From an uncultured virus (IMG/VR IMGVR_UViG_3300009873_000028) (Duplodnaviria; Heunggongvirae; Uroviricota; Caudoviricetes): 64,000 nucleotides of DNA. Positions within the stretch are counted from its first letter, which is position 1; each line of letters opens with the position of its first letter. The notes below the pieces were generated by a model that saw only the letters and a list, made by a program, of their open reading frames with translations, ran no database searches and had not been told where the DNA came from. Below, piece by piece: positions 1-23,590 of the stretch. The translations under genes were made by a program, and so were the position numbers. The DNA lies in IMG/VR virus record IMGVR_UViG_3300009873_000028. One strand, 5' to 3'.

Positions 1-245
1 CCCCCCTCCCGGCGGCCACCCCTTGGGACAACTAACCCCAAAAAGCAAAGGAAAAGCGAAGCGCATTAAATGCGCAGCCGCAAGTCCTTTGTTTGCCTCA
101 CTTGCGGGTGGCATGCTTCTTGTCCTGCAAGCCTCATGCCGTGTTACTTAAAGTAACGTCTGACATACCCCCCCTTCCGGGGGAACCCGCCTAGGATTGG
201 AAGGGTAAAGGCTAAGGCACCTAAGGCGGGCGCTCGCCGCCCTAG

Positions 246-259
246 AGTTGCTTAGCTAG
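246..259 (+). promoter_or_regulatory. Copy of repeated early-region motif AGTTG(C/A)(T/C)TAGCTAG
   Basis: AGTTGCTTAGCTAG here; related copies at 675-688, 1669-1682 and 5038-5051, all intergenic upstream of genes. Confidence 0.55.
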
Positions 260-276
260 CGAGGGAACTAGAAGAA

Positions 277-477
277 ATGGACAATCTACTCGAAGCCTAC
301 GTGAAAGGCATCGATGACAAAGGCAACACGGTTGACTCCGTGTGGACCAGTGCAGAGAGCATCTCTGACTTGGCTACCACGTGCGCCACTATGGACGCGA
401 AGCATCCGCGTCGCATCGTGCGCTTTCTCATCGATGTAGCCGTGCCGAACTCGTACACGTTCGGAGCCAACGCGTGA
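277..477 (+). CDS. Small early hypothetical protein
   Basis: 66 aa ORF with ATG and purine-rich leader. Confidence 0.6.
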   Translation: MDNLLEAYVKGIDDKGNTVDSVWTSAESISDLATTCATMDAKHPRRIVRFLIDVAVPNSYTFGANA

Positions 478-766
478 GACGCACACCGCCGCACCTCCTG
501 AGCCGCAAAAGCGGGCAGCAAATCTTGCTGGACGCACGGCGCGAAGCCGCGCCGCAACCGCCGAACGTACCCGCGAAGCTTCCGAGTTTCACCGCCATGC
601 AAGTATGGCGGTATGGGTATCCCCGAGCCTAGTAGGCTCCGAGTAGGAAGCGCCCCCGGGCGCTTCCCTCTCAGAGTTGACTAGCTAGCTAGCCGACTCG
701 CCACGGCCAAACCGTAACCGCGCAATTTCGCGCTAACCCGCGTTTGGCTGGAAGGAAACCTTAGCA

Positions 767-1555
767 ATGGCTAAGCGAGACAAGACGAACCCCGAGCAGA
801 TCGAGCAGGCCGATGCGCTCTTGAGCATCCCGGCCCTGATCACGGAATGGGTCAAGCAGCACGTGCCGCAGGAGATCCACGACAAGATCAACAGCGCGCT
901 CAGCGCGTTGGCCGACGTGCAAGACGGATTCAACCGGAACGGCAACCGCACCGACTACCGTCGGGACCAGCTGGCGTTCGCGTCCGCCGGCATCGAGCCG
1001 ACGGCCGACGGGCCGGTGCTGGTCGTGTCCACCATGAAGGGTCGCCGCGTGGCCGACATCGTGCGCGTGTACCTGCTGGAGCACGTCAGCACGTTCGTCT
1101 ACCCGCCGACGGAGCGCAAGGACGGGAAGATGCAGTCACACCGTCCCGCGCGCGAGCGCTGGGTCAGCGGCCTCGGCTTCGAGCAGCAGGAAGCGGGTTC
1201 CGGCAAGCGCTGGAATCTGGTGCAGAAGGCCGGGACCGACGAGTTGCTCGCGGAGATCGAGAAGCTGGTGCCTGAGCGTTTCGAGGGTACCGAGCTTCCG
1301 ACCAGCACCAAGAGCTTCCTCAAGCTGGTCCTGCCCTCGGAGCTTGGCGGGCTCGAGGTCAGCGTCGCCGTCTACGATCCCGAGAAGCCCAACGTCACCG
1401 AAGAGAAGTTCCGCGCGGACCTCGAGCGCATCATGCCGCTCCTGCGGGCCGGCGGGCAGTTCAGCACCGACCGCAAGGGCAACCCCACGCGCCTTGGGGA
1501 GTTGTACCTCGCCGCATTCAAGGCGAGCCAGCAGGCGGCTCAGGCCGCAGCCTAG
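767..1555 (+). CDS. Early hypothetical protein
   Basis: 262 aa ORF, GAAGGA RBS, strong GC3 codon bias, followed by terminator. Confidence 0.8.
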   Translation: MAKRDKTNPEQIEQADALLSIPALITEWVKQHVPQEIHDKINSALSALADVQDGFNRNGNRTDYRRDQLAFASAGIEPTADGPVLVVSTMKGRRVADIVRVYLLEHVSTFVYPPTERKDGKMQSHRPARERWVSGLGFEQQEAGSGKRWNLVQKAGTDELLAEIEKLVPERFEGTELPTSTKSFLKLVLPSELGGLEVSVAVYDPEKPNVTEEKFRADLERIMPLLRAGGQFSTDRKGNPTRLGELYLAAFKASQQAAQAAA

Positions 1556-1562
1556 CCTTCCA

Positions 1563-1606
1563 GAGTGCCTCGGCCCCGAAAGGGGCCGGGGCGCTCACTT
1601 TTTTTG
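1563..1606 (+). terminator. Intrinsic terminator
   Basis: GAGTGCCTCGGCCCC-GAAA-GGGGCCGGGGCGCTC hairpin followed by a T run. Confidence 0.85.
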
Positions 1607-1698
1607 CTCTTCCCGCCCGTTGAGCGAATTGAGACCCAAGCAAGCGCGTTGCGCTTGCTTGGTTGTCAAGTTGCTTAGCTAGAGGAGGAACTTAACCC

Positions 1699-1857
1699 AT
1701 GGAAGCGATCAGTTATGGGCTAGTGGATTACCACGCAGCCCACGCCGACAAGACCGACCACATCGTTCTGCTCGGAGGCAACATCGTCGCCATCGTCTTC
1801 TCGTGCGAGGACGCACGCGCCCTCGTGGGGGAACTGGAGGTCCAATGCTCCGAGTAA
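1699..1857 (+). CDS. Small hypothetical protein, 52 aa (not in ORF track)
   Basis: GAGGAGG RBS, ATG 1699, MEAISYGLVDYH...QCSE stop. Confidence 0.6.
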   Translation: MEAISYGLVDYHAAHADKTDHIVLLGGNIVAIVFSCEDARALVGELEVQCSE

Positions 1858-2091
1858 AAGTGCTCCGCGCGGATGGCTCCGAGGAGCTTTTCTTCGCAGA
1901 CGATGTAGAAGTGCAGCATGGCACGATCAGCTTCGAAACAGGCAATGGCCTTCGCGCTTTTCGACTCGACGAGGAACAGCACATCGAAGTGAAGGCCCTT
2001 CCGGGCGGGCTCTTGAAGCCCGCCGGTTGGGAGCCATGTGTCGGCCCTTGCTGGCATCACGCCTGCAAGAACCCCTAAAGGAGAAAACCCA

Positions 2092-2538
2092 TTGAGAGAA
2101 GAGTACGCCGTTCCGAGCGCACTCGCATCTCTCTGGACACTCACAGCTTTGACGTTGAGCCTTCTACCAGAAGTTGGTCCGCCAGCTAGAGAACATCACC
2201 ACAACATTTTCGATCCCCCTGCTTTGAGCGTCCCTGAGATGCCGAAGTTCCACAAGGTGACAGCCTACTGTACATGCGCCCTTTGTTGCGGCAAGTGGGC
2301 AGATGGCATCACCGCCACGGGACACCCCGCTGTTGAGGGGGTCACGGTCGCAGTAGACCCAAGCGTTTGGCCGCTGAGAAGTTGCGTTAGGCTTTTCGGC
2401 ATCGGTCGCCGAATGGCGACCGACACCGGCAGTGCCATCAAGGGCGAGCGCATAGACCTTTTCCTTGACTCTCACGAGAGGGCCAAGGAATGGGGAGTGA
2501 GAGAGATGCTGGTCAGCGATTGCGGGACAGGAGCTTAA
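2092..2538 (+). CDS. 3D-domain (Asp-Asp-Asp) cell-wall lytic protein
   Basis: VTAYC..GITATG..VAVDP..DTGSAIKGERIDLF motifs; TTG start after AAGGAG. Confidence 0.85.
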   Translation: MREEYAVPSALASLWTLTALTLSLLPEVGPPAREHHHNIFDPPALSVPEMPKFHKVTAYCTCALCCGKWADGITATGHPAVEGVTVAVDPSVWPLRSCVRLFGIGRRMATDTGSAIKGERIDLFLDSHERAKEWGVREMLVSDCGTGA

Positions 2539-2743
2539 AGTGTTGAAGCAAAACGAAGTACCTCAATTCGCAAAGCGGCTCACCTACGCAAGCGAGGAGG
2601 AGCTAGAGGAGAAGCTAGCCCGTGCTGAGCAGGAGCGTGACACCCTCATGTGGATCATCCTCGCGTTCATGCTCCTCGGGATCCTCTTCGGCTCAGGACC
2701 AGAGGGGTCATACTTCGAGCCGTTCTGAGCAGGCGAGATAAAG

Positions 2744-2774
2744 GGGCCAAGCGCAAAGCGCTTGGCTCTTTTTT
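2744..2774 (+). terminator. Intrinsic terminator
   Basis: GGGCCAAGCGC-AAA-GCGCTTGGCTC followed by T6. Confidence 0.8.
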
Positions 2775-2798
2775 CGTGCTTACTCAAGGAGGAGAAAG

Positions 2799-3068
2799 AT
2801 GGAACCCAACATCGATCCGATCATCCAGAAGAACATCGAACGTTGGAACTTGGAGCAGACGAAGAAGAGGGAGAAGAAGGCTCGCACTCAAGCCCACGCT
2901 ATCGAGCTGCTACGCAAGGAGTTGAACCGCGAGCCGCGAGCGCACGAAGTGCGTTCGAAGATCGCCTTCCTCCTCGCGGAGCGCAGGGCCAAGTGGCTCC
3001 TGAAGGAGTGCCGCGCCACCGTGGGAGAGCTGGTAGCCGCGCACAACGCGAAGCAGGGGAAGAAGTGA
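2799..3068 (+). CDS. Hypothetical basic helical protein
   Basis: AGGAGGAG RBS, 89 aa. Confidence 0.7.
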   Translation: MEPNIDPIIQKNIERWNLEQTKKREKKARTQAHAIELLRKELNREPRAHEVRSKIAFLLAERRAKWLLKECRATVGELVAAHNAKQGKK

Positions 3069-3690
3069 GCCTAGTAGGCGCGTTCTTCCTAGGAGCGGCG
3101 TTCATGCTCTGGATCCTCTGGCTCGACGGGAGGCTGAGGTGAACCGCTTCCAGCTCTGGTTGCTTAGCTGGCTAGCCAGCTTCGAGGAGGCTCCCCAGTA
3201 CGTGAGCCAAGATACCTTGAACTACTGGCTTCGGCGAGAGAGGCAAGAGCTTCTGGACGGCAAAGGGAAGGTGAGCGAGTGAGAAAGGGGATCTACGTTG
3301 ACCCCCGGGGCGTGAGCCCCGGGTGTAGCGGCATCGAAATCCGAGATCGAGAGACGCAGAAGCAGAAGGACGAGAAGAAGGGCCTGAAGGGCATCTTCGT
3401 CGAGGGCCGCGGCTTCACCTCGAACTTCGAGGAGGCTCGGAGCTGGCTGCAGGTGGGAGAAGCTCTCGGGCGCTACAAGCTGAGGCTCTTCCGCTTCGGG
3501 TTGATAGTGTGAGGTCCACGCAGTATCGTTGGGTTCAAGTCCGAAACGAGCCAACCGTGGAGTGGACTCCCGCTCATTTCACACCGGACTGGTTCGAGAC
3601 GGAAGGTGGAGCCTACTGGCTTATAGGCACAGACGAACCATTTCACATCCGAGAACTCGTGTTAGGTGACTGGCTAGAAGAGCCCGTCTA

Positions 3691-3772
3691 GACAGAAATG
3701 CACACACGCTGTGTGTGCATTGCTCAACCAAACCCTAGCTAACCTGTTGAGCCTGATGAAGTTGGTTAGCTA
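3691..3772 (+). ncRNA. Type II hammerhead ribozyme, variant core, predicted cut after 3721
   Basis: GAAA 3695-98; stem III TGCACACAC/GTGTGTGCA; AUU triplet; stem I GCTCAAC/GTTGAGC; CTGATGA 3753-59; short stem II GTT/GAC behind an A.A pair; 9-bp pseudoknot TAGCTAACC/GGTTAGCTA. Confidence 0.8.
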
Positions 3773-3819
3773 ACAATCCAACCATGCGGACGCCTGCAGC
3801 GTCCGTATGTGAAAGGAAA

Positions 3820-4959
3820 ATGAGACAAATGCGAAAGTTCATGAGCATGCTCTTCGCACTCACCCTCGCCGCGTGTAGCGGCGGGACCAGCATCACGGGA
3901 CCGGAGAGCAACGAGGCTCCCACCACGGGCGCTTCCGCGCCCGTGGCGCAGGCAACCCCTGCCCCGCAGCCTGTGGACGGACAGACGCCCACGGCGTCTG
4001 TCATCAACTTCTACCCCAACGCGACCTTCGAGGCGTTCAACAACAGCGGAGACCCGAAGGAGTTCACCGCGTTCATCACGAGCTTCGACGATCAGGTAAC
4101 TCCGCTCACGCCTCCCGGCGTGGTGAAGCAGCTGGTCGCAGCAGGGAAGAGCTGGAACTACAGCTTCAGCCGCACGTGCGTGCAGGCTGACGTGGAGGGT
4201 GACGGCGTGTTCGGCGCTGCCTTCTACGGGAAGAACGGTCAGCAGATCGACATTCGCACGCCTGCTGGCGAGGCTGCCATCAAGGAGTGTCGCTGCACGC
4301 CGACGTGGCAGCGGGATGAAGAGTATGAGACGGTCTATGGTGAGTGGGTGGTCGAGGGATGCAGCAAGAGCCGCACTGTGACCCACATCTATACCGAAAC
4401 GCAGACCTGCACCAACGCGACCCGCAAGATTGAGGTGCCGCAGCCTGCTCAGGTGGAGGATGTCGAGGGTGAGACGAACTTCAGCCTCGGTACGCTGAGC
4501 TACTCGACCTACACCCCCGGCTACACGCTTTACAAGTACGACGGTCGGAGTGGACTGGAGAACGACTGCCAGAACGACGGCGGGACGTTCTACTCGTCCA
4601 AGGATGGGCGTGAGAACGTCTGCTACACCATGACGAATCACGGCGAGTGGTGGGAGTACGACAACAACGACTACGCCAACCGCTACGACACCGACAACGT
4701 GCCGGCGTCGGGTGGCAACCCGATCAGCGGCAGCGCTAGCGTGTCTGGCTCTGGCACCTGGAAGCTGGTCCTGAAGGCCACCAACCCGGGCGACTACAAC
4801 AAGGACATCGACACCGAGAAGCTGGGTTGCGGTGAGCGCGGCCAGTTGAACGTCAGCTACGACTGGATCGGCCACAATTCGGACAAGTGGTTCCTCCAGC
4901 TGTTCCACAACAACGTGCTAGTCGCCACCAGCCCGATCGTGAACAACCCCTCGAACTAG
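3820..4959 (+). CDS. Lipoprotein of unknown function
   Basis: GAAAGGA RBS; signal peptide with lipobox LAAC; Pro/Thr linker; Cys-containing beta-rich body. Confidence 0.8.
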   Translation: MRQMRKFMSMLFALTLAACSGGTSITGPESNEAPTTGASAPVAQATPAPQPVDGQTPTASVINFYPNATFEAFNNSGDPKEFTAFITSFDDQVTPLTPPGVVKQLVAAGKSWNYSFSRTCVQADVEGDGVFGAAFYGKNGQQIDIRTPAGEAAIKECRCTPTWQRDEEYETVYGEWVVEGCSKSRTVTHIYTETQTCTNATRKIEVPQPAQVEDVEGETNFSLGTLSYSTYTPGYTLYKYDGRSGLENDCQNDGGTFYSSKDGRENVCYTMTNHGEWWEYDNNDYANRYDTDNVPASGGNPISGSASVSGSGTWKLVLKATNPGDYNKDIDTEKLGCGERGQLNVSYDWIGHNSDKWFLQLFHNNVLVATSPIVNNPSN

Positions 4960-4964
4960 GCGAA

Positions 4965-5035
4965 GCCTAGTTCGAGCAGGCCGAAACGGCGCTCCCTCGC
5001 GCCGTCGCAGCGTTAGGCGCTGCCTGAAGATGGCC
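4965..5035 (+). ncRNA. Type II hammerhead ribozyme, predicted cut after GUC at 5006
   Basis: GGCC-GAAA; stem III CGGCGC/GCGCCG; TC; stem I GCAGCG/CGCTGC; CTGAAGA-T-GGCC; loop I TTAGG(C) can pair with GCCTAG 4965-70. Confidence 0.9.
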
Positions 5036-5063
5036 AGAGTTGCCTAGCTAGAAGGAGAACTTA

Positions 5064-5258
5064 ATGGACGCTAACCTTTCACGTCTGATCGAATCCGCTG
5101 ATGTGCTGGTCAAGTTGGCCAGCCTGCTGATCGTGTTTCGCCTGGTGGACGGCCTCGCCGCACTCGGCCTCCAGATCCGCGGCTACTTCCGAATCGCAGA
5201 GTCCGAGCAGAGGCTGCTGGAGGCCCTCAAGGCGGTTGCTGAAAGGCAGCCGAAGTGA
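5064..5258 (+). CDS. Small membrane-associated hypothetical protein
   Basis: AAGGAG RBS, hydrophobic middle. Confidence 0.65.
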   Translation: MDANLSRLIESADVLVKLASLLIVFRLVDGLAALGLQIRGYFRIAESEQRLLEALKAVAERQPK

Positions 5259-5348
5259 GCCGAGGCGAAACCGTAGCTTTGTGCGCCCTCGTGGGCGCTT
5301 TGCTTTTCCTAACCCCCAAGCTCCTCTACGACTACCTGAGATGGCACG

Positions 5349-5771
5349 ATGGGGAGGAGTAAGCTTCCCCTAGCAGCAGCGGTTTGCGCTGCTGCTTGCG
5401 GCACCCCCTACCCTACTGCCTCGTCCGAAACCTTTACCACGACCGAGATGGCCCTGGTCGATCACACTGCTGCTGCTGCTGCGCAGCAGCAGGTGAAGGT
5501 GCGAGGCGAAATCACTGACAAAATGTATCCTGGCCTGGCAAAGGTGAATCCCACCGCTTGGTACGACGCCGGGGTGGCCTACTACTACCGACCCAACGTG
5601 GCACGCTACGTCAGCTTAGTCCCCGAGCCGGGTAAGGAAACCGCCCTCAACATCGCCACGCACGAAGTTTGCCACGCGAAGCATCGAGCGCATGACTGTG
5701 CGCACTGGCTTTGCATGGATAAGTGGGCTACTCCTACCTATCCCGAGCCTGGGAGGTGCAAGAATGACTGA
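5349..5771 (+). CDS. Putative lipoprotein zinc metallopeptidase
   Basis: AAAC lipobox-like N-terminus; HEVCH (HExxH) plus downstream His. Confidence 0.6.
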   Translation: MGRSKLPLAAAVCAAACGTPYPTASSETFTTTEMALVDHTAAAAAQQQVKVRGEITDKMYPGLAKVNPTAWYDAGVAYYYRPNVARYVSLVPEPGKETALNIATHEVCHAKHRAHDCAHWLCMDKWATPTYPEPGRCKND

Positions 5772-6159
5772 GCCCACCGCCGAGCACCTGAAGGCCGCGC
5801 AGGAGTGGATCGAGGGCAACTGGCAGTCTAACGATGCCGACCCGACGCCGGTTCAATCCTTCGAGGCCGCTGTTGAAAGCCTCGCCGCCCTCCTCGCAAG
5901 GAGGGAGCAGGCGCTGCGGGAGGAGATCACGCTGTGGCAGCACCGCAGCACCACCAGCGCGAGAGACTCTGCCGCACTGGAGCAGCGCGCCGAAGCCGCC
6001 GAGGCCCGGCTGAAGCGGGTGATAGAGGCGGCGGGGGAGTACCTCGACCCAACACACCACTGCGAGGATGAGGGAGAAGATTTCTCGCAGCCCTGCCCAC
6101 GTAAGGTTCGTCTTGACGCAGCGCTGGCCGCCGCGCAGTCGAGCGAGGAGGGCGCATGA
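5764..6159 (+). CDS. Hypothetical coiled-coil protein
   Basis: GGAGG RBS, ATG 5764. Confidence 0.6.
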   Translation: MTEPTAEHLKAAQEWIEGNWQSNDADPTPVQSFEAAVESLAALLARREQALREEITLWQHRSTTSARDSAALEQRAEAAEARLKRVIEAAGEYLDPTHHCEDEGEDFSQPCPRKVRLDAALAAAQSSEEGA

Positions 6160-7842: not shown

Positions 7843-8265
7843 ATGTTGGACGAACTGCTGGCCTCAGCCACTGAGGAGCCTAAGGCTCCTGAGCCTACGT
7901 TTCGCTTGCTCGTGGCGGACTCTAACCCCCAACGAGCGGACTACTACAGAATCCGGGGAAATCCCGCCGAGCTTCGGGTGGTGCGCTCAGTTGCTGCGCT
8001 AACTAGTGAACTTGCAGAGAGCAAGTGGCACCTGCTCATCACCTCTGGGACCTTGCAAGGCTACACAAACGATGAAGAGCTTCTCGCTCCCATCATCAAC
8101 GCGCACTACTCAGGACACCTAGAGGGCGTGATTGTGAATGCCAGCATCCCAGTTTTTGGAGAAGAGCTTACCAAAGACCTTCTGAGAGCTGGTGTGCCCG
8201 CGCGCTGGTACCCCTACGACGCTCGTACCCCTTCTTTCCACTATCCAAAGGCGGTTAAGTTGTGA
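7843..8265 (+). CDS. Hypothetical protein, possibly receiver-like alpha/beta fold
   Basis: LLVADS...WHLLITSG beta-alpha pattern; family uncertain. Confidence 0.5.
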   Translation: MLDELLASATEEPKAPEPTFRLLVADSNPQRADYYRIRGNPAELRVVRSVAALTSELAESKWHLLITSGTLQGYTNDEELLAPIINAHYSGHLEGVIVNASIPVFGEELTKDLLRAGVPARWYPYDARTPSFHYPKAVKL

Positions 8266-9542
8266 AGGAAAAAGAAAAGTTCGACGCTTCCACCTTCTCC
8301 CCCGAGCACCGTTGCCTCGGCCAGGACTCTGAGTTCTTCCTCTGGGACAAGGAGAAGGAGAAGGTGGTGGAAAGCTTCCACTTCTTCGAGAAGAAGCCCC
8401 TGGCGAAGCGGCTCTTCGGTGGAACTCAGGAAGCAGCAAAGAGGTACTGGGGATCCACTCCCGTCCCCGAGGACATCAGAGTGGTGGACCGAGAGCTTCC
8501 CGAGCCCATCCCTCCCTTCGACGACGTGGCTCCGCTGGTGTTCAGGGATGGGCTTGCAGTGGAGATCAACACAGCTCCCACCAACTGCAGGGGCTGGTTC
8601 TACAACAACGTCCGGTGGGCACTCTGGCTCGCCGACGCGGGCCTTCCGGAGCACGTGGGTTGGACCTCCCGCCCCTGGGTGGAGGTGGACCCCAAGGACA
8701 TCCAAAGCTGGCCAGAGGACCTGAAAGAGCTGGGATGCTCTCCCACCCTGGACGCTTACACAGGGAAGCAAAAGATTCTCCGAGTGAATCCCCTTAAGCT
8801 TCCCTTCCGCACCTCTGGCTCGCACTTCCACATGAGCTTCTACACCAAGCCAGCCCTCGAAGGTCACACGGCTTTCATCAAGCTGGCTGACATGTTCATC
8901 GGACTCCCCTTCACCTTTCTTTTTGGTGATGAGCTGGAGTTCAAGCGTAGGAAGCTCTACGGGCAAGCTGGGGAGTACCGGGTGCAGGAGTACAAGGAGA
9001 AGAACTTCCCTAACGACCCTCCCACTCCCGGCCTGGAGTACCGCGTTCTCTCCTCGCGTGTGTGGTCTCACCCTGGGATCTTCTCACTCTTCTCTGGGAT
9101 CTGGAAGTACGTCCTAGGTCAGCCGCGCATGCTCGAAAAGGCCTGGGATCGCTGGGATCCCGCTTGGGAGGACGAGCTTCAGGAAGCCATCAACCTGGGA
9201 AGCGAAGCTGCGCTTCAGTCCATGATGCAAAAAAGCGTGGAGCTGATGCCTAGCTACTACGACGCCTGGGAAAGGCACCCGAGTGGGACGGACGTCTATG
9301 GCTATCCACTAACCCCGAAGGCGCGGTTCGACGAAAGTGATCAGCTGCTCTATCTCCGTGGGGATAGCTTCTCCCCAGAGGAGAAGCTCTCTGTGTGGAA
9401 GAAGCTCCGTGAGCACGCGCGAGCGGGTGCTTTCCCCGACATGGGAGTGATGGACCCGAAGCTTCCCGAGGCTCACGTGGGTTGGCAGCACTACGCGCAG
9501 ACCCAGAAGCTAAACCCGAAAGTGGTGAGGCATGACGTCTAA
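8262..9542 (+). CDS. phiEco32-like COOH-NH2 ligase type 2
   Basis: LGQDSEFFL, DGLAVEIN, LGCSPTLDAY, RTSGSHFH, RRKLYGQAGEYR, GLEYRVLS motifs. Confidence 0.85.
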   Translation: MKEKEKFDASTFSPEHRCLGQDSEFFLWDKEKEKVVESFHFFEKKPLAKRLFGGTQEAAKRYWGSTPVPEDIRVVDRELPEPIPPFDDVAPLVFRDGLAVEINTAPTNCRGWFYNNVRWALWLADAGLPEHVGWTSRPWVEVDPKDIQSWPEDLKELGCSPTLDAYTGKQKILRVNPLKLPFRTSGSHFHMSFYTKPALEGHTAFIKLADMFIGLPFTFLFGDELEFKRRKLYGQAGEYRVQEYKEKNFPNDPPTPGLEYRVLSSRVWSHPGIFSLFSGIWKYVLGQPRMLEKAWDRWDPAWEDELQEAINLGSEAALQSMMQKSVELMPSYYDAWERHPSGTDVYGYPLTPKARFDESDQLLYLRGDSFSPEEKLSVWKKLREHARAGAFPDMGVMDPKLPEAHVGWQHYAQTQKLNPKVVRHDV

Positions 9543-9912
9543 GCCAACAGCAGAATGGGACGAGGAGCTTAGCTTCGCCCGGGCTGTGCCCGGAGAGGAA
9601 GGTTGTTGTGAAGCGTGCGCTTCAGGCGCCAAGGTGGAGAAGGTACCCTACCTCGAGATCCACATGGCGATGAATTGGGTGGTACTTTGCCCTCGGCACG
9701 AGAACGAGCTTCTTCAGTGGCTGCTCGCTAACTACATCAAGAGGATGAGCAAGAAGAAGCCTGGAATCATCCCCCTGGCCAAGAGCACTACCGAGGGTTT
9801 GGTGGAATGGCTGAAGAGAGACGAAACCGCTGAGGACGCTGAGCAACTCAACTTCAAGGACGAAGCGGACATCCCGTCCGCACAGGAGAGGCTAAACCAT
9901 GACTGGGAGTGA
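9532..9912 (+). CDS. Hypothetical protein with CxxC/CxxH
   Basis: Coupled ORF inside the ligase cluster. Confidence 0.6.
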   Translation: MTSKPTAEWDEELSFARAVPGEEGCCEACASGAKVEKVPYLEIHMAMNWVVLCPRHENELLQWLLANYIKRMSKKKPGIIPLAKSTTEGLVEWLKRDETAEDAEQLNFKDEADIPSAQERLNHDWE

Positions 9913-10288
9913 CAAGCTGACCATCTTCGTCTACGGCTCTTTGAAGAAGGGCTTCTACAATCACCCCTTGCTGGACGTGGAGGGTGTGGAGTTCCTCGAC
10001 ACCGTGGAAATTCCCGGAGTCGTCCTTTACGATCTGGGCTACTACCCCGCAGTGGTTTTAACTCATGGCCCCACCTTGGTGGAAGCAGAAGCCTATCGCG
10101 TGCCTCAGCGGGTGTTTGACTTCCTCAACCGCATGGAGACTGGAGCTGGGTACGACTTCAGCATCTATCGCGCTAACAGCCTGATGGCACCCCAAGGCTA
10201 CATCTGGCATTGGCCGGATGACTTGGAAGGGCAGCGCCCAAAGGTTGATCCTGACCCTGATGGTGTGGCGCGTTGGAGGGAGAAGTAA
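9899..10288 (+). CDS. Gamma-glutamylcyclotransferase (AIG2/GGCT-like)
   Basis: IFVYGSLKKG..NH, LYDLGYYPAV, LNRME motifs. Confidence 0.9.
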   Translation: MTGSDKLTIFVYGSLKKGFYNHPLLDVEGVEFLDTVEIPGVVLYDLGYYPAVVLTHGPTLVEAEAYRVPQRVFDFLNRMETGAGYDFSIYRANSLMAPQGYIWHWPDDLEGQRPKVDPDPDGVARWREK

Positions 10289-10848
10289 TGCAGCTAGAGC
10301 ACGAAGTTTCTATCGAGATGGACGAGGGAGTGGAATACTTCCCTCACTTCGCTGTGGAGTCCACCAGCTCCGGCACGCGGATCGAGGTGCTCTCACCTAT
10401 TTTCGCTGAGGTGCTTGGCAAGCTCCCCAGGAACGAGGTGAAGGGTAAGGGGGCGTGGACAGGCCACACCTTCCTCATCCCATCCCCTGAGCATCTCGAG
10501 GACCTCTACATCAACGCGGGGGGAGGACTCTTCTCCAGCGACGGAGAAACCCCGAACATGGTGTGGATGCTTCACCCAGACCTGGGGGTTGGGGTGACCT
10601 TCGAAGTTCCCGAGCCCCTCAGCGTGAACAACCTGGAGGACTACTTCACTTCCGTGTGCGAGGAGCTGAGAGACTTCTACCTCTCCAAGATCCGCAAGGT
10701 GAAGCTGAAGGCCAAGCTGAGGGACAGAGGGAAGAAGGCGACTGCACTCCGCCAGACCATCAGAGAGGTAGCGCGCCCCCGCCAAGCCTTCGCCTGGACC
10801 AACATGGCGAACGAGGGGGCTCCTCCTCCTCCGGAGCCTCTTCGCTGA
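10288..10848 (+). CDS. Hypothetical protein in ligase cluster
   Basis: TAATG-coupled ORF with GGAG RBS. Confidence 0.7.
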   Translation: MQLEHEVSIEMDEGVEYFPHFAVESTSSGTRIEVLSPIFAEVLGKLPRNEVKGKGAWTGHTFLIPSPEHLEDLYINAGGGLFSSDGETPNMVWMLHPDLGVGVTFEVPEPLSVNNLEDYFTSVCEELRDFYLSKIRKVKLKAKLRDRGKKATALRQTIREVARPRQAFAWTNMANEGAPPPPEPLR

Positions 10849-11516
10849 TGTCCCGCATCGCTAAGGTCGGCTTCGAGATCGAAGGAGGGTGGAAGGGGGA
10901 CCCTAGGGTTTCCCCGTTCGCCGACACCCCTTTGATCGCGGATCACTCTATCAATGGGCAGAGCCTAGGTGGTGCGCCAGCCATTCACGCACCCCATGTT
11001 GGGGAGGTGGTGAGTAAGCCTTTCCCATACGAGGAAGGGGAGTGGAAAGACTGGCTTGTCTCGCACTGGCCTGACGCTGAGCCAAAGGACCGCACCAACC
11101 GCACTTGTGGCTTTCACATCCACCTAAGCACCAAGAGCCTGAGGGACTACTCGCTTCTCAGCTCCAAGAGCTTCTTTTTCGAGTTGAAGGACGAGATGAA
11201 CAAGGTGGGGGAGAGGGTTAAGCTGCCCAAGAAGCACGTGTTCTGGGAGAGGGTGAGGGGGCAGAATCGCTTCTGCACCCCCGAGTTTGACCCCGCGAAC
11301 CAAATGCGAATCAACAAGAAGGGCGGGGCGAATCGTTACGGCTGGCTGAACTTCGCGTGGACCATGCACGGGACCATGGAGTTCAGAGCCCTTCCCACAT
11401 TCCGGGACGCAGCAGTGGGCCTCCGCTTTGCTGAAGCCTACTTCGGCTTCGTTCAGGGTTGGCTGGAAAAGAACCAAGACGTAAAGCTGCGGCGCGAAGC
11501 GCTGCTGGCAGAGTAG
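10848..11516 (+). CDS. Putative amidoligase (Amidoligase_2-like)
   Basis: GFEIEG, DHSI, EVVS, NRTCGFHIH, RYGWLN, GTMEFR; TGATG coupling puts the start at 10848. Confidence 0.85.
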   Translation: MSRIAKVGFEIEGGWKGDPRVSPFADTPLIADHSINGQSLGGAPAIHAPHVGEVVSKPFPYEEGEWKDWLVSHWPDAEPKDRTNRTCGFHIHLSTKSLRDYSLLSSKSFFFELKDEMNKVGERVKLPKKHVFWERVRGQNRFCTPEFDPANQMRINKKGGANRYGWLNFAWTMHGTMEFRALPTFRDAAVGLRFAEAYFGFVQGWLEKNQDVKLRREALLAE

Positions 11517-11531
11517 AAGGAGGGTAGCGCT

Positions 11532-12464
11532 TTGTGCGTAATCTACGTTTGCAGTACTAAGCTTCCTGAGGACTCCGAGCTGACCCGGGGGGCAACCAGA
11601 AATGACGATGGTGCTGGCGTGGCGTGGCTTGGGCGGTGGGACAAGAAGCCCAACGAGCCCGCGGTGCACTGGAAGAAGGGCCTGAAGAACGCCAAGGACG
11701 TGAAGGAGTTCATCCGAGACAACAAGCTGAGCTTCCCGCTTGCGGTGCACTTCCGCACCGCAAGCGTGGGTGGAAAGCACCCACAGCTGTGCCACCCGTT
11801 CCCGGTTTCGCCCTCCGCGGAAACCTGGCTAGAAGGTCACGCTGAGCAGGTGCTCTTCCACAACGGGAGTGTGTTCAACTGGGATGACCTGGTGCTCCAA
11901 GTGGGCCTCCGGTCCACCGAGCGGATTCCCAATGGCCGCTTCTGGAGCGACACCCGAGGTCTCGCTTGGCTTGTGTACATGAAGGGAGAAGGCATCCTGC
12001 CCTTTGTGCTGAAGGAGTCCAGAGTGGCTCTCTTCGACGCAAAACCCGCTAGCTGGGGCCAGGAGGGCTACTCGCCCAAGGATCACTTCGACCTGTGGGG
12101 CACCTGGATCCACAAGGATGGCTTTTCCCAGAGCATCTCCACTGACTCCTACAACCGGGGAGGCACCGTTTACTCCTCTCGTCGAGCTATGAGTGGCTAC
12201 CGCCAGGACTGGGAGATGGAAGACGAAGAGGTGGTGGATTGCTCCTCGGTGCAGTGCGGACTGCCGCAGGCTCCTGAGCCTCCGAAGCCCCCGGAGCCGA
12301 CCAAAGAGGAGAGTTCCGACCGGGAGAGGGCGTGGAAGCTTCTCCGTGGAGGCGTGGACGACCCCACCTCCGTGGAGGATGTGTGGCCGTTGGACCAGCT
12401 GCGGGCCATCCTGGCTGCTATGAAGAGGGAGCAGGCGAATGCGAAGATTGCTGCCGGAGTTTAG
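11532..12464 (+). CDS. Class II (Ntn) glutamine amidotransferase
   Basis: Cys2 nucleophile, NDDGAG, HFRTASVG, CHPF, LFHNG, SDTR. Confidence 0.9.
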   Translation: MCVIYVCSTKLPEDSELTRGATRNDDGAGVAWLGRWDKKPNEPAVHWKKGLKNAKDVKEFIRDNKLSFPLAVHFRTASVGGKHPQLCHPFPVSPSAETWLEGHAEQVLFHNGSVFNWDDLVLQVGLRSTERIPNGRFWSDTRGLAWLVYMKGEGILPFVLKESRVALFDAKPASWGQEGYSPKDHFDLWGTWIHKDGFSQSISTDSYNRGGTVYSSRRAMSGYRQDWEMEDEEVVDCSSVQCGLPQAPEPPKPPEPTKEESSDRERAWKLLRGGVDDPTSVEDVWPLDQLRAILAAMKREQANAKIAAGV

Positions 12465-12942
12465 CAACCTTCCCAAATACGTTAGGGTAAGGGCCATTCA
12501 AGGTCCTCCTCCGCCGAGGGAGGTGGGGAAGCCCCTTCGGGAAAAGATCCGTGCTGCAGAGTTCGAGGGAAAGATTCCCAAGCTCTTCATCACCAAGCAG
12601 CAACAGTTGCTTTGCATCCCCAAGGAGCACCCTGGCTACTCGCCGGAGGAGAACCGCCTCAACTTCTGGGCTGTGAGGTTGGGGAACGTGAGTTCGGTCG
12701 TGGTGGAGGTGGTGGACATCTCCCTCACGGAGGACGACGCCAACTACACTACCTACGCAAAAAGCGTAGAAGAGCATCGGAGGACCAGGAGGACCACCTA
12801 CCTGGACGACAACCAGCTGGAGAGGGCTGAAGCACGCGAGAGAGCGGGCGAGGCCCCTCCACCTGAGGACGAGGAAGTTCACGAGGAAGAAGAAGAAGAG
12901 TTCTTCGACGACATCGTAGAGGACGAGGAGGACCAGCCATGA
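12439..12942 (+). CDS. Hypothetical protein with highly acidic C-terminus
   Basis: Ends EDEEVHEEEEEEFFDDIVEDEEDQP. Confidence 0.7.
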   Translation: MRRLLPEFSNLPKYVRVRAIQGPPPPREVGKPLREKIRAAEFEGKIPKLFITKQQQLLCIPKEHPGYSPEENRLNFWAVRLGNVSSVVVEVVDISLTEDDANYTTYAKSVEEHRRTRRTTYLDDNQLERAEARERAGEAPPPEDEEVHEEEEEEFFDDIVEDEEDQP

Positions 12943-13619
12943 TACTGCTTATGGATAAGCACTCCCAAACTGGAGAAGCCTTTGAGCGGGCCCTAAGAAC
13001 AGAGGGGCTAGACCACACCAACCCACCACTGAGGGTCAATTGGACTGGTGGACGGCAAAACTACGGCTTTCCTGTCCCGGTGCTGAATGCCCTGAGCCGC
13101 ACAAACAAGCTGAGCCAACTCATCAGGCTTGAGATGCAGGGAGTTCCTGTGCCGGAGTGGCGGGTTTTCCCACCAGCTACGGGCGAAGCCCGTAGCTGGT
13201 TCGCCCGGAGCGCGAACCACCAGCAAGGCTCGGACTTCCGGCGCACCGTTCGTGCGCCGGACTTCTGGACCAAGTACCTCGACATCTCGGAGGAGTGGAG
13301 ACTTCACTTCTTCCGGAGCCCCCGAGGTGGGCTCCGGCTTCTGCGTTCCGCGCAGAAGGTCCCGAAGAGCAATGCGCACCCTTTCATCCGTTCGCACAAG
13401 CTCGGGTGGAAGCTGAGCTACACAGGTGGAGCACCTGCGGAGCTGCGAGCCGCTGCGCGGCGCGCTGTGGAAGCTTTGGCTCTCGACTTCGGCGCTGTGG
13501 ACTGCGGGCTAACCAACGGCCAGCCCGTGGTGTTGGAGGTGAACACCTGCCCAGGACTGGAGGGTGGCACGCTCCAACTCTACGTTGAGCAAGTGATGAG
13601 AAGGGTGGAGGCGTTGTGA
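12939..13619 (+). CDS. ATP-grasp ligase (RimK-like C-terminal motifs)
   Basis: EWRLH, LDFGAVD, VLEVNTCPG. Confidence 0.85.
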   Translation: MILLMDKHSQTGEAFERALRTEGLDHTNPPLRVNWTGGRQNYGFPVPVLNALSRTNKLSQLIRLEMQGVPVPEWRVFPPATGEARSWFARSANHQQGSDFRRTVRAPDFWTKYLDISEEWRLHFFRSPRGGLRLLRSAQKVPKSNAHPFIRSHKLGWKLSYTGGAPAELRAAARRAVEALALDFGAVDCGLTNGQPVVLEVNTCPGLEGGTLQLYVEQVMRRVEAL

Positions 13620-16835: not shown

Positions 16836-17780
16836 TTAACTTCCACTCTCGGCCCCGACATCCTTCCTCCCCAGCCACTCCACCCCAGGGAAAGCCCCGT
16901 GCTCGATGATCTGCCTTAGACGGTAGGCAGTAGACTCGGACTTATGCAAGATCCGTGCCAGCTCCTTATCAAATGCCCCGCCTTGCAGGGCGGAGCCGTG
17001 GCGTAGCTCATAGGCTACGTAAAGCTGCTCGAACTTCGGGCAGGTTAAGCTGGACCCATCCTTCGGATCGAGAAACAGGCCAAGAGGCCCGTAGAGCTGG
17101 CTGATTTGGCTCTTCTCCATGCTCAACCTTAGGTTGATCCCTTCCAGCTCCGACTCGTGGCGCTGAAGGGCCAGGCCTATCTGCGCGTCGTTGAGCCAGT
17201 TCATAGCCCCGGAGAAGTTCTCCTTCGTCCGGGTGTGGTTCCCGTTTGCGTCCACCTGAGTCTTTTTGGTGTGATGCACAAAGAGCAAAGCAGCACCAGG
17301 AAACTGGTGCTGGAAGTACGAGTAAACTTCTGCCACAGTCTGAGGTTCTTTGTCGTTCAGGCTGTGGGCCTTACGTAGTGTGTTCACTACGACGAGGTCG
17401 TACCCTTCAGCAGCAGCTTGATCAAGCATAGCTTGATCAGCTGACTGGGGCTGTGGGGCACTGAGAGGGGGAAGGAAGAGAAAGTCCACCCCTGGCGCAG
17501 GGCGCAAAGCCTTGAGCCTCTCATGCACGAGACGCTGCGGGGTGTCCAACTCCAGGTAAAGCACTTTTCCCTGGTACGCGGGCAACCCACAGAAGTTGTC
17601 TCCTCTGCCGATGGCAGCAGCAAGGTGCCATCCAAGCGGGCTTTTGCCCGTGCTAGTCTCCCCCCAAAGGAATGTGATCCCTGCCCTAGCGATGTAAGGT
17701 TCCACCAGCCAGGCAGTTTCCTCGAACTCCTTCTTCTGGAACTCCTCCCAGGAAACGAGACACCTGGTGTCTCTACTCAT
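16836..17780 (-). CDS. AAA_25/RepA-like helicase
   Basis: WLVEPYI, Walker A GETSTGKS, VLYLELD, LFVHHTKK, FSGA. Confidence 0.85.
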   Translation of the reverse strand: MSRDTRCLVSWEEFQKKEFEETAWLVEPYIARAGITFLWGETSTGKSPLGWHLAAAIGRGDNFCGLPAYQGKVLYLELDTPQRLVHERLKALRPAPGVDFLFLPPLSAPQPQSADQAMLDQAAAEGYDLVVVNTLRKAHSLNDKEPQTVAEVYSYFQHQFPGAALLFVHHTKKTQVDANGNHTRTKENFSGAMNWLNDAQIGLALQRHESELEGINLRLSMEKSQISQLYGPLGLFLDPKDGSSLTCPKFEQLYVAYELRHGSALQGGAFDKELARILHKSESTAYRLRQIIEHGAFPGVEWLGRKDVGAESGS

Positions 17781-17973
17781 CTCCAGCAATAGCCGCCAAG
17801 GTAGCTGCTTCTATTTTGTCGTTGCCCTCCAGTGTGGGATTCTCTAGCTCATACTTGCACTCGGGGCAGACTTTAGGAATCTCTTCGCTTCTCGGGTACC
17901 ACCCATACTTACAGTGCTCACAGAGCAGATGCAGGTGACGCTTAAAAGTTTTTCGGAATGTTGTCTTCGCCAT
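17773..17973 (-). CDS. Small zinc-ribbon protein
   Basis: CEHCKYGW..PKVCPEC; AGGAG RBS. Confidence 0.7.
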   Translation of the reverse strand: MAKTTFRKTFKRHLHLLCEHCKYGWYPRSEEIPKVCPECKYELENPTLEGNDKIEAATLAAIAGDE

Positions 17974-21402: not shown

Positions 21403-21476
21403 GGGAGAATCGTTCAAAGGAAGGACGGCGGTCTCCAAAACCGCTAATCTAGGTTCGAGTCCTAGTTCTCCCGCCA
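21403..21476 (+). tRNA. tRNA-Trp(CCA)
   Basis: Cloverleaf; GCGGT-CT CCA AA-ACCGC; encoded CCA end. Confidence 0.92.
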
Positions 21477-21503
21477 ACTACACGGGAAGCCCTTAGGCTT
21501 CCC

Positions 21504-21630
21504 TGAGTCGTGACACCTGGAGCCTAGCAGCCAGGGACTTTTTGTCCCCGCTACGCAAGGGCTGGCAAGAAGCAAGGGCAAGGAAACGCCTCGCGTTCAT
21601 TCCTCCTTCCTTCCTCAGAGTGTTGGTCCA
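21504..21630 (+). ncRNA. Candidate structured small RNA E1
   Basis: Between perfect hairpins 21484-503 and 21631-656; GCCAG/CTGGC and GGAC/GTCC stems; pyrimidine tract. Confidence 0.45.
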
Positions 21631-21658
21631 AGAGCAGGGCCTTTAGGCCCTGCTCTAT

Positions 21659-21732
21659 GCGGACAAAGAATTACGATAGTTCGGAGCCTTGCCAAGGCTC
21701 AGGCACGGGTTTGACTCCCGTTGTCCGCTCCA
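21659..21732 (+). tRNA. tRNA-Gly(GCC)
   Basis: GAGCC-TT GCC AA-GGCTC; T-loop TTTGACT; CCA. Confidence 0.88.
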
Positions 21733-21734
21733 AA

Positions 21735-21824
21735 GGGGTGGTGACGGAATGGTTTAACGTGCCGGTCTGTAAAACCGCAGCCGGGCTCAGTCCCGTGGAG
21801 GTTCGAGTCCTCCCCACCCCACCA
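21735..21824 (+). tRNA. tRNA-Tyr(GTA)
   Basis: CT GTA AA loop, long variable arm, CCA. Confidence 0.92.
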
Positions 21825-21830
21825 AAAAGC

Positions 21831-21904
21831 GCGGGCCTTACATAAAGGTAGTGTCTCAGCCTTCCAAGCTGAAGGTACGGGTTCGATTCCCGTGGCCCGC
21901 TCCA
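21831..21904 (+). tRNA. tRNA-Gly(TCC)
   Basis: TCAGC-CT TCC AA-GCTGA; CCA. Confidence 0.92.
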
Positions 21905-21906
21905 AC

Positions 21907-21981
21907 CCACCACAGGTGTTACGGCAGCATAGCGGGCTCTTAACCCGACAGGTGAAGGTTCAAGTCCTTCGTGGTGGACCA
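21907..21981 (+). tRNA. tRNA-Lys(CTT)
   Basis: CCACCAC/GTGGTGG acceptor; CT CTT AA loop; CCA. Confidence 0.88.
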
Positions 21982-21985
21982 TTTT

Positions 21986-22061
21986 GCTACCTAAGTTTAG
22001 ATGGTTGAACACCGCCTTGGTAAGGCGGGGGTGCTGGGTTCGATCCCCAGAGGTAGCTCCA
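21986..22061 (+). tRNA. tRNA-Thr(GGT)
   Basis: CCGCC-TT GGT AA-GGCGG; CCA. Confidence 0.9.
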
Positions 22062-22063
22062 AA

Positions 22064-22138
22064 AGGAGAGGAGGAAAGGAAAGACACTCCCCGCTTGGAC
22101 TCCAGACAAGGCAAGCGGAGTACCTTTCCCCCCTCCTT
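22064..22138 (+). ncRNA. Candidate structured small RNA E2 (long interrupted hairpin)
   Basis: Purine 5' arm pairs with pyrimidine 3' arm; inner CCGCTTG/CAAGCGG. Confidence 0.55.
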
Positions 22139-22142
22139 CTTT

Positions 22143-22218
22143 ACCAGGGTAGCCCAACGGCAGAGGCAACAGGCTGAGAGTCTGTTCAGTGAGGGTTCGA
22201 ATCCCTCCCCTGGTACCA
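22143..22218 (+). tRNA. tRNA-Leu(GAG), short variable loop
   Basis: ACAGG-CT GAG AG-TCTGT; CCA. Confidence 0.88.
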
Positions 22219-22254
22219 AGCTGGCTCAGCTGGGTAAAACCGGGGGGCGAGCTT
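22219..22254 (+). ncRNA. Candidate small hairpin E3
   Basis: AGCT..GCTC..CTGG-GTAAAA-CCGG..GGGC..AGCT. Confidence 0.35.
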
Positions 22255-22258
22255 CCTA

Positions 22259-22360
22259 GGCCGCGTGGCGAAACTGGCAAACGCAGGAGACTTAAAACCT
22301 CCTAAACGCACTCCGCTCAAACCGGAGCGACTGTGGGTTCGACTCCCACCGTGGCCACCA
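22259..22360 (+). tRNA. tRNA-Leu(TAA), extra-long variable arm
   Basis: CT TAA AA loop; 102 nt; CCA. Confidence 0.88.
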
Positions 22361-22363
22361 AAA

Positions 22364-22410
22364 AGCAGGGTAGGGCTGGACGTTGAAGAGCCCGTAAATA
22401 GAGCCCTGCT
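22364..22410 (+). ncRNA. Candidate structured small RNA E4
   Basis: AGCAGGG/CCCTGCT closing stem; inner GGGCT/AGCCC. Confidence 0.5.
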
Positions 22411-22415
22411 TCTTT

Positions 22416-22492
22416 AGCCCTGTGATGGAACTGGCATACATACGAGTCTTAGAAACTCGGTTTTAGGGGTTCAACTCCCCTCGGGGCTACCA
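22416..22492 (+). tRNA. tRNA-Leu(TAG), short variable loop
   Basis: CGAGT-CT TAG AA-ACTCG; CCA. Confidence 0.88.
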
Positions 22493-22499
22493 AAACTTA

Positions 22500-22577
22500 G
22501 GGACGTGAGAGGGCTAGGCGTCCTCGCTTGCTTGTCAGGCAAGAGATCGGCGGGTTCGAATCCCGCACGTCCCGCCA
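22500..22577 (+). tRNA. tRNA-Asp(GTC)
   Basis: CTTGC-TT GTC AG-GCAAG; G discriminator; CCA. Confidence 0.9.
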
Positions 22578-22584
22578 CTTCTTC

Positions 22585-22659
22585 GGGGGCTTCAGCTAAC
22601 GGCTAGGCTAGGTGGTTCTCAGCCATCCAACACGGGTTCGACCCCCGTAGCCCCTACCA
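22585..22659 (+). tRNA. tRNA-Glu(CTC)
   Basis: GGTGG-TT CTC AG-CCATC; CCA. Confidence 0.88.
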
Positions 22660-22704
22660 GCTCCGGCAGTCGCGTGATTCCTACTAGGTGGCGATGGACG
22701 GGGC
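22660..22704 (+). ncRNA. Candidate structured small RNA E5
   Basis: GCTCCG/CGGGGC and GTCGC/GCGAT stems around a 17-nt loop. Confidence 0.45.
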
Positions 22705-22709
22705 ATTTC

Positions 22710-22783
22710 GGGTTCCGAGTAGGACGGGAATACGACTGGTTTGCACCCAGTAAGACGGGGTTCGACTCCCCGGGGATCCACCA
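22710..22783 (+). tRNA. tRNA-Ala(TGC)
   Basis: ACTGG-TT TGC AC-CCAGT; G3.U70 identity pair; CCA. Confidence 0.88.
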
Positions 22784-22789
22784 TCTCTT

Positions 22790-22863
22790 CGACCCATGGT
22801 GAAATGAAATCATCGCGCTCTACGAAAGCACGGTTAGGGGTTAAAATCCTCTTGGGTCGGCCA
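22790..22863 (+). tRNA. tRNA-Arg(ACG), atypical T-loop
   Basis: CT ACG AA loop; T-loop TTAAAAT; CCA. Confidence 0.8.
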
Positions 22864-22870
22864 CTTCTGC

Positions 22871-22945
22871 TGCGGGGCAGTCAGGTGACTACCTTAGGCT
22901 CATAACCTAAAGGGCGTTGGGGTTCAAGTCCCTCCTCCGCTACCA
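22871..22945 (+). tRNA. tRNA-Met(CAT), initiator-like 1:72 mismatch
   Basis: TTAGG-CT CAT AA-CCTAA; U1.U72; CCA. Confidence 0.85.
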
Positions 22946-22948
22946 AAC

Positions 22949-23023
22949 GCACCGCTGATGAAAAGGCTATCATGGCGCTCTTACAAGGCGCTCTTCTAGG
23001 TTCGAGTCCTAGGTGGTGCACCA
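22949..23023 (+). tRNA. tRNA-Val(TAC)
   Basis: GCGCT-CT TAC AA-GGCGC; CCA. Confidence 0.9.
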
Positions 23024-23028
23024 ACTTT

Positions 23029-23102
23029 TGGGAAAAGATGTTACGGTAGCATCCTCGCTTTGGAAGCGAGTTGCCCGGGTTCGACTCCCGGTTTCCCAAC
23101 CA
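23029..23102 (+). tRNA. tRNA-Pro(TGG)
   Basis: CTCGC-TT TGG AA-GCGAG; CCA. Confidence 0.9.
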
Positions 23103-23109
23103 CTTCTGT

Positions 23110-23184
23110 GGTGACCTTACGCTAATGGAAAGCGGTCAGGCTGTGAACCTGATGATGCGAGTTCGAGTCTCGTAGGCCACCCCA
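23110..23184 (+). tRNA. tRNA-His(GTG)
   Basis: G-1/C73; TCAGG-CT GTG AA-CCTGA; CCA. Confidence 0.9.
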
Positions 23185-23189
23185 CTTCT

Positions 23190-23263
23190 TGGGACATAGC
23201 ACAATGGCAGTGCAGCGGGCTCTGACCCCGCGCATCAAGGTTCGAGTCCTTGTGTCCCAGCCA
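23190..23263 (+). tRNA. tRNA-Gln(CTG)
   Basis: U1-A72; GCGGG-CT CTG AC-CCCGC; CCA. Confidence 0.92.
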
Positions 23264-23265
23264 AA

Positions 23266-23341
23266 GCAGAGAGAGCTAGTGTGGTCATAGCACGGGTTTG
23301 AAAAGCCCGCCAACGTGGTTCGATCCCACGTCTCTGCACCA
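23266..23341 (+). tRNA. tRNA-Phe(GAA)
   Basis: CGGGT-TT GAA AA-GCCCG; CCA. Confidence 0.9.
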
Positions 23342-23413: not shown

Positions 23414-23417
23414 TTCT

Positions 23418-23493: not shown

Positions 23494-23495
23494 AA

Positions 23496-23570: not shown

Positions 23571-23590
23571 ACTCGCGCTACGCGCTCGTT

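Follow-up and report, generated by a model that had tools for sequence, protein, structure and literature searches.

The window, that is, the whole 64-kb stretch of DNA that was analyzed, belongs to a tailed phage encoding a major head protein, a portal protein, a family A DNA polymerase, a phiEco32-like ligase and 23 tRNAs, its phage identity resting on the capsid, portal and polymerase matches. When the capsid protein was compared with 50,697 phage records, only two phages of Tunturiibacter, a genus of Acidobacteriota, were matched, at 27% identity. X1, from activated sludge, is the one DNA run found to contain the stretch; no RNA run was listed as containing it. Positions 2-6013 of the window are spanned with 0 differences by one X1 contig, and X1 may itself be the source of the window. 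At position 7286, outside the cassette described here, the X1 contig carries 11 extra letters, which represent an assembly or strain difference. Judging from the gene layout, the left end of the window, which is filled with small genes on the + strand, appears to be the early region.

Elsewhere in the window, the 23 tRNA genes are clustered at 21403-25318. Positions 8262-13619 form one block with the phiEco32-like COOH-NH2 ligase, a gamma-glutamyl cyclotransferase and an ATP-grasp-type gene (PHROG 2599); the first part of this block is also present in G001, a related phage. Between 35374 and 38652, the family A polymerase domain (37489-38652) forms an ORF separate from the upstream ORF bearing a uracil-DNA-glycosylase domain, and a SLOG-like ORF sits between the two. 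An AAA_25 helicase-like gene (16836-17789) lies on the - strand within a + strand region. Another lipoprotein-like ORF (28184-29962) includes a weak GH5-like domain and is preceded by a weak copy of a repeated element that recurs in the early region. Near the left end, a 20-nt partly palindromic stretch (143-162) is identical in G001 and is the same in locus L050 near 4220; it is a candidate protein-binding, origin or packaging site.

The early region contains a lipoprotein gene placed between two predicted hammerhead ribozymes, HH1 and HH2. The features of this locus are as follows.

3691-3772, + strand: HH1, variant type II hammerhead, predicted cut after 3721 (hand reading, descriptor scans and G001 orthologue).
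3722-5006, + strand: predicted excised RNA of 1285 nt (1231 nt in G001), expected to bear 5'-OH and 2',3'-cyclic phosphate ends.
3736-3772, + strand: HH1 pseudoknot, in which loop I (3736-3744) forms 9 Watson-Crick pairs with 3764-3772.
3783-3809, + strand: 11-bp hairpin between HH1 and the ribosome-binding site (sequence, fold and G001 counterpart).
3813-3817, + strand: Shine-Dalgarno-like purine run of the lipoprotein gene, recognized by sequence and kept in G001; putative function.
3829-4959, + strand: lipoprotein P0001, 376 aa, with lipobox Cys16, a Pro/Ala/Thr linker and two beta-rich domains joined by a long beta-hairpin.
4950-4976, + strand: 12-bp hairpin over the stop codon, expected to shield the excised RNA at its 3' end; G001 lacks it.
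4979-5048, + strand: HH2, type II hammerhead, predicted cut after 5006, with a GUC site and an extra U after A9.
5038-5057, + strand: copy of the repeated early-region start element together with the Shine-Dalgarno sequence belonging to ORF 5064-5258; the 3' strand of the HH2 pseudoknot comes from this stretch.

The original prediction described complete type II hammerhead cores on both sides of a lipoprotein ORF. Two type II hammerheads do lie at the places predicted, but the term complete core does not apply to HH1, which has an A·A and U17; these non-canonical features and the pseudoknots of both ribozymes had been missed. HH1 carries every conserved core base, with GAAA at 3695-3698 and CUGAUGA at 3753-3759. 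Stem III comprises 9 bp (3699-3707/3711-3719), stem I 7 bp (3722-3728/3746-3752) and stem II 3 bp (3691-3693/3761-3763), the latter overlapping the upstream stop codon. The cleavage triplet is AUU (3719-3721), position 17 thus being U, and at 10.1/11.1 A3694 stands opposite A3760 instead of forming a base pair. At least 9 pseudoknot pairs with the HH1 loop were reached by 0.36% of 5000 random 26-nt tails. Energy folding without pseudoknots recovered stems I and III of HH1, not stem II.

The best cleavage triplets reported are GUC and AUC (PMC9217987, available text). HH1 may be slow because its A·A affects the most conserved pair outside 15.1-16.1, because position 17 is U and because its triplet is neither of these two; we consider cleavage by HH1 likely. 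In the accessible part of Perreault 2011 (PMC3088659), a U·U mismatch at 10.1/11.1 and a stem II of 1-2 bp are reported to occur naturally in type II ribozymes; unlike the U·U named there, HH1 combines A·A with U17. The literature covered, which was mostly open and stopped short of the supplementary type II alignments of PMC3088659, contained no report of an A·A occurring naturally at 10.1/11.1. Furthermore, HH1 had no hammerhead family match in Rfam at E up to 10 and no match in INPHARED. A search with a narrow pattern for the A·A/U17 variant yielded 78 loci, and a single one passed the subsequent stem filter, G001 itself.

HH2 carries GAAA at 4983-4986, CUGAAGA at 5024-5030 and the triplet GUC at 5004-5006. 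Its stem III has 6 bp, its stem I 5-6 bp and its stem II 4 bp (4979-4982/5032-5035) with an extra U5031 after A9, and the 10.1-11.1 pair is present provided that U5031 is counted as an insertion. The pseudoknot comprises 7 bp (5012-5018/5042-5048), a number of pairs reached by 4.6% of 5000 random tails. Compared to the Rfam model RF02276 (Hammerhead_II), HH2 has all conserved core bases and closed stems I and III, with stem II open; its score of 24.8 bits (E 0.16) falls below the gathering score of 37. Cleavage by HH2 is very likely in our view.

The 14-nt repeated element occurs on the + strand at window positions 246, 675, 1669, 3158, 3760 and 5038, with weaker copies at 16757 and 28205. When up to 2 mismatches were allowed, we counted 6 copies in 1-5100, 1 on the rest of the + strand and 0 on the - strand. 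The element precedes early genes, mostly between an inverted repeat and the ribosome-binding site, and in G001 three corresponding places keep no more than its initial five letters. It may be a promoter element. Pfam revealed neither a phage RNA polymerase nor a sigma factor in the window, and a sigma-70 scan returned 1 site versus 1.1 expected. The element was also considered as a part of the ribozyme and rejected: a pattern combining the core with the repeated start element gave 25 loci, a hammerhead was present in 0/25, and the pseudoknots of G001 use other strands.

A descriptor scan of both strands of the 64-kb window returned 2 type II and 0 type I/III hammerheads. In 60 order-2 Markov simulations, chance matches averaged 0.017 per 64 kb with stems of at least 4 bp, and none was obtained with stems of at least 6 bp (0/60). 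HH1 and HH2 are the only consensus hammerheads in the window, and G001 (70.8 kb) also has only two; a relaxed core scan revealed no further motif in window 1-21000 or in the early region of G001. In both phages, both motifs exhibit CUGANGA, GAAA and NUH in type II order together with closed stems I and III. No hammerhead in the window reaches the Rfam gathering score, and both G001 motifs are also without an RF02276 match. The pseudoknots comprise 9 and 7 bp in HH1 and HH2 of the window and 9 and 5 bp in G001, with random-tail fractions of 0.004, 0.046, 0.027 and 0.25, respectively, the last not being above chance. U17 occurs in three of the four ribozymes of the two phages, and none of the four has a Watson-Crick pair directly after A9, this position being occupied by A·A, A·A, U·U, and an extra U or C·U.

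Six related loci were found with the capsid protein. Four of them were searched as whole records, and one, G001, carries a homologue of the lipoprotein, while the three further capsid relatives searched in this way gave no lipoprotein match. G001 is a complete 70.8-kb phage with 85% capsid identity to the window. Its lipoprotein gene (63907-65007) bears the same two ribozymes on its flanks, with predicted cuts after 63804 and 65035. Comparison of the 17 pairs of HH1 between the window and G001 revealed 10 double changes, 1 single change, 6 unchanged pairs and 0 broken pairs, and the A·A and U17 were both kept while 11 of these 17 nearby pairs changed. The HH1 pseudoknot of G001 is built from unrelated, still complementary strands. 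The 10 pairs of HH2 showed 7 double changes and 0 broken pairs; in the G001 copy of HH2, positions 10.1/11.1 form a U·U, stem II has a single pair and the cleavage site is CUU. Both ribozymes together thus display 17 double changes, 1 single change, 9 unchanged and 0 broken among 27 pairs, counts that come from two sequences in a register set by the core and that measure structure conservation, not statistical covariation. This sequence comparison indicates that the structure of both hammerheads is real and under selection.

The cassette occupies the same syntenic place in the window and in G001, with one copy per genome. The window has an extra ORF (3509-3691) upstream of HH1, and G001 has two extra ORFs after HH2. 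Since the nearest genes on either side differ between the two phages, the ribozyme pair goes with the lipoprotein gene. In G001, HH1 is followed by a hairpin of related sequence that matches the position of 3783-3809. G001 also repeats 8 nt of the 5' strand of HH1 stem III just past the upstream stop codon (63764-63771; L033 1352-1359); this copy could compete with ribozyme folding and is absent from the window.

The original prediction had also proposed checking whether homologous genes are flanked by two ribozymes. This proved true of G001, whereas two distant homologues lack them: no hammerhead was found on either flank of the homologue in L131 (34% over the N-terminal part), nor in L026 on the downstream flank, the only one present on that contig. 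A hammerhead is present in 2/3 testable upstream flanks and in 2/4 downstream flanks. Likewise, no hammerhead was found in the DNA examined for L027, L028, L030, L031 and L032, which are fragments related by the capsid gene. Scans of viral contigs with a single protein or with alignment A1 confirmed 0/7 and 0/3 candidates, respectively, and scans with alignments A4 and A6 returned G001 only. The cassette has been seen in two phages only. Locus L132 was discarded as a homologue, its match being spurious: it spans 25 aa (E 1e-4) and falls within an ABC-transporter region. In the cultured phage Tunturi_1, a single type II hammerhead immediately precedes the DNA methyltransferase gene gp84 (L134 about 28700-28760, - strand; PP887698.1 near 56750).

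The piece between the predicted cuts contains one ORF (3829-4959) with a lipobox and the purine run at 3813-3817, in agreement with the single lipoprotein ORF and ribosome-binding site announced in the original prediction. The N-terminus of its product, P0001, consists of a basic start, a hydrophobic stretch and what we take to be a lipobox, given the consensus, and Cys16 is invariant in 9/9 homologues and throughout alignments A1 and A3. Structure prediction gave a disordered linker at residues 1-54 (pLDDT <50) and two confidently predicted beta-rich domains with a long hairpin (mean pLDDT 74.5, pTM 0.43). P0001 had no match in Pfam, PHROG, INPHARED or the Atlas and no specific match in Foldseek, which returned low-TM beta-sandwich matches only (best TM by query 0.21 in the PDB and 0.24 in BFVD). 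A word search gathered a family of 9 proteins and a profile search extended it to 188 representatives at E up to 0.001; an informative name was found for 0/10 family members looked up.

The lipoprotein of G001 resembles P0001 only in the signal/linker (51% of 57 aa) and in 86 C-terminal residues (27%); it has its first domain in common with P0005, and the last one is shared with P0018 (67% over 121 aa). As for the other early genes, 12 of 19 match G001 at 37-64% identity. By these alignments, the lipoprotein family is mosaic, its two domains evidently recombining among homologues. Codon adaptation of the lipoprotein gene to the capsid gene is 0.73, a value tied for the highest of 31 genes scored and confounded with GC3. 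Distant lipoprotein homologues at L026 1-1876 and L131 2811-4993 lie in exported-protein clusters, and in both loci a homologue of the HExxH-containing ORF of the window (5349-5771) is found nearby. The lipoprotein is probably membrane-anchored, outward-facing, under diversifying pressure and abundant, and most plausibly acts at the host envelope against competing phages. An exclusion role can be suggested tentatively, by analogy with Llp of phage T5. Like P0001, Llp is an early phage-encoded lipoprotein; it is described as small in the available text (PMC9586334; 10.64898/2026.03.26.714494), whereas P0001 has 376 aa, two beta-rich domains and no sequence or fold match.

We propose, with a probability of about 0.6, that HH1 and HH2 form a gene-specific cassette that cuts a linear, single-gene lipoprotein mRNA from the early transcript. 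In the long early transcript, each ribozyme would fold its stems I-III, pair loop I with the 3' tail in a pseudoknot and then cut itself, releasing a linear mRNA of 1.2-1.3 kb that carries the lipoprotein gene only. The type II topology would keep stem I and the pseudoknot on the 5' end of this mRNA and stem III on its 3' end. The 5' end would present a 5'-OH inside stem I and the pseudoknot, then the hairpin and the ribosome-binding site, and the 3' end would bear one or two hairpins and the cyclic phosphate. The genes downstream would also acquire a new, structured 5' end from the HH2 cut. Both the level of the lipoprotein message and its lifetime would be uncoupled from those of its neighbors and most likely raised; a linear single-gene mRNA with structured ends would thereby allow a variable surface protein to be dosed apart from the neighboring genes.

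The excised 1285-nt monocistronic mRNA of the original prediction is supported because the homologous gene of G001 carries the same two flanking ribozymes, with compensatory changes, and the cleavage product is presumably linear. We lean toward a boost as the effect on the lipoprotein message, and only somewhat, because cleavage can also lead to decay, as for glmS. Unmasking of the ribosome-binding site by cleavage was not seen in a model without pseudoknots, in which its openness went from 0.67 to 0.67 in the window and from 0.63 to 0.58 in G001.

Deliberately weakened cores could instead make processing slow, partial or dependent on ions or translation, the pair acting as a timer on lipoprotein expression. 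Such tuned or conditional cutting would fit with U17 in 3/4 ribozymes, with a Watson-Crick pair after A9 in 0/4 and with the persistence of A·A and U17 in HH1 amid 11/17 changed pairs; the competing 8-nt stem III copy in G001 and the overlap between the upstream stop codon of the window and stem II point in the same direction. However, the competing copy is absent from the window, no ligand-binding module was seen, and strong pseudoknots can offset variants at the edge of the core, as reported in the accessible part of PMC3088659. We regard a timer as rather unlikely, though ahead of the explanations that follow.

Less probable still, cleavage could mark the lipoprotein mRNA for fast decay and confine a harmful envelope protein to a short period. 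Degradation does follow cleavage of glmS (PMC6765202, section 13), but both ends of the excised piece are highly structured and the codon use suggests high expression.

The original prediction went further and suggested that the excised RNA could be circularized. Host RtcB, or a hybrid hammerhead rebuilt from the 5' half of HH2 and the 3' half of HH1, would convert it into a long-lived circular mRNA, and a deliberately slow A·A/U17 core would favor the joined form, prolonging synthesis of the exclusion lipoprotein. If this were true, a hypervariable exclusion lipoprotein would still be made once early transcription stops. The end chemistry left by cleavage suits RtcB, as had been stated, and engineered systems use this ligase; full-length hammerheads can also ligate much faster than minimal ones (PMC6155905, available text). 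Engineered circles nonetheless use complementary ligation stems (bioRxiv 10.1101/2022.02.11.480072, available text for both points), and the first and last 120 nt of the window RNA form 0.00 expected pairs, against 5.2 in G001, such pairing not being conserved. In the G001 model the first 6 nt pair with a stretch located 30-35 nt from the 3' end, but this 6-bp end helix competes with stem I. A hybrid stem II can be drawn in both phages, as a C·A followed by 3 pairs in the window and as one U-A pair in G001, but it is weak and differs between them, we estimate that 3 such pairs arise by chance in about 1 in 8 cases, and the joined junction could be cut again. A Pfam scan of 73 phage proteins from the window, which comprises 64 kb of a 65.4-kb contig, revealed no RtcB or RNA ligase; such an enzyme could also come from the host. 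The contigs of runs X1-X3 contain no 5006/3722 joint, a negative of no weight for or against a circle. Moreover, Perreault 2011 sought circular or spliced products of hammerhead clusters and, in the portion of PMC3088659 available, detected none. Because neither conserved end pairing nor a phage ligase was found, circularization is unsupported, and we consider it improbable. Most improbable of all is a selfish, RNA-mobilized, retrozyme-like element that captured a gene: two same-strand hammerheads do delimit a unit, but HH1 and HH2 share only the core and are not repeats of each other, the unit occupies the same syntenic place with one copy in each phage, and the 73 proteins include no reverse transcriptase (Pfam).

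Excision by gene-flanking hammerheads is not new. The available text of Perreault 2011 (PMC3088659) describes multiple hammerheads flanking single prophage genes, such as ardA in Agrobacterium tumefaciens, reports that three tested clusters from three bacteria cleaved at all sites, and presents type II hammerheads with pseudoknots whose flanked genes are not constant. In the window, at least two same-strand hammerheads are located in the intergenic gaps around one gene of a phage genome, and the cassette is a member of this known class of phage gene-flanking hammerheads. As in these clusters, the type II hammerheads share one strand and bracket a single gene of a phage polycistronic region, their stem II is short, loop I forms a pseudoknot with the 3' tail, and processing into a single-gene mRNA is proposed. 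Unlike in the clusters described in the accessible part of that paper, the pair here comprises the only hammerheads of the genome, is associated with the same gene family in two phages and has a domain-swapping lipoprotein as its cargo. Two features set the cassette apart: in both phages the hammerheads are reserved for a single lipoprotein gene with swapping domains, and the A·A/U17 ribozyme, which is conserved, is missed by Rfam.

Engineered systems offer further parallels. In RiboJ, a ribozyme is likewise followed by a hairpin and a ribosome-binding site, the upstream RNA is removed and a uniform 5' end results; unlike RiboJ as described in the available part of PMC8942793, HH1 is natural, of type II with a pseudoknot, and paired with a 3' ribozyme, and the analogy is functional only. 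In the engineered icRNA (bioRxiv 10.1101/2022.02.11.480072, available text) and in retrozymes, the RNA is likewise freed by two ribozymes and ends in a 5'-OH and a 2',3'-cyclic phosphate, as predicted here; unlike these, the window has no ligation stem or terminal repeats.

The purpose of bacterial and phage hammerheads remains undefined according to section 13 of PMC6765202. Ribozymes of the A·A/U17 type are probably under-counted because Rfam misses this conserved example. While most clusters punctuate changing sets of unknown genes, the two phages described here spend both of their hammerheads on one gene. The cassette is therefore a clean two-site, one-gene case for whether cleavage raises, lowers or times expression, and it draws attention to a lipoprotein family of 188 representatives that may act at the host surface.
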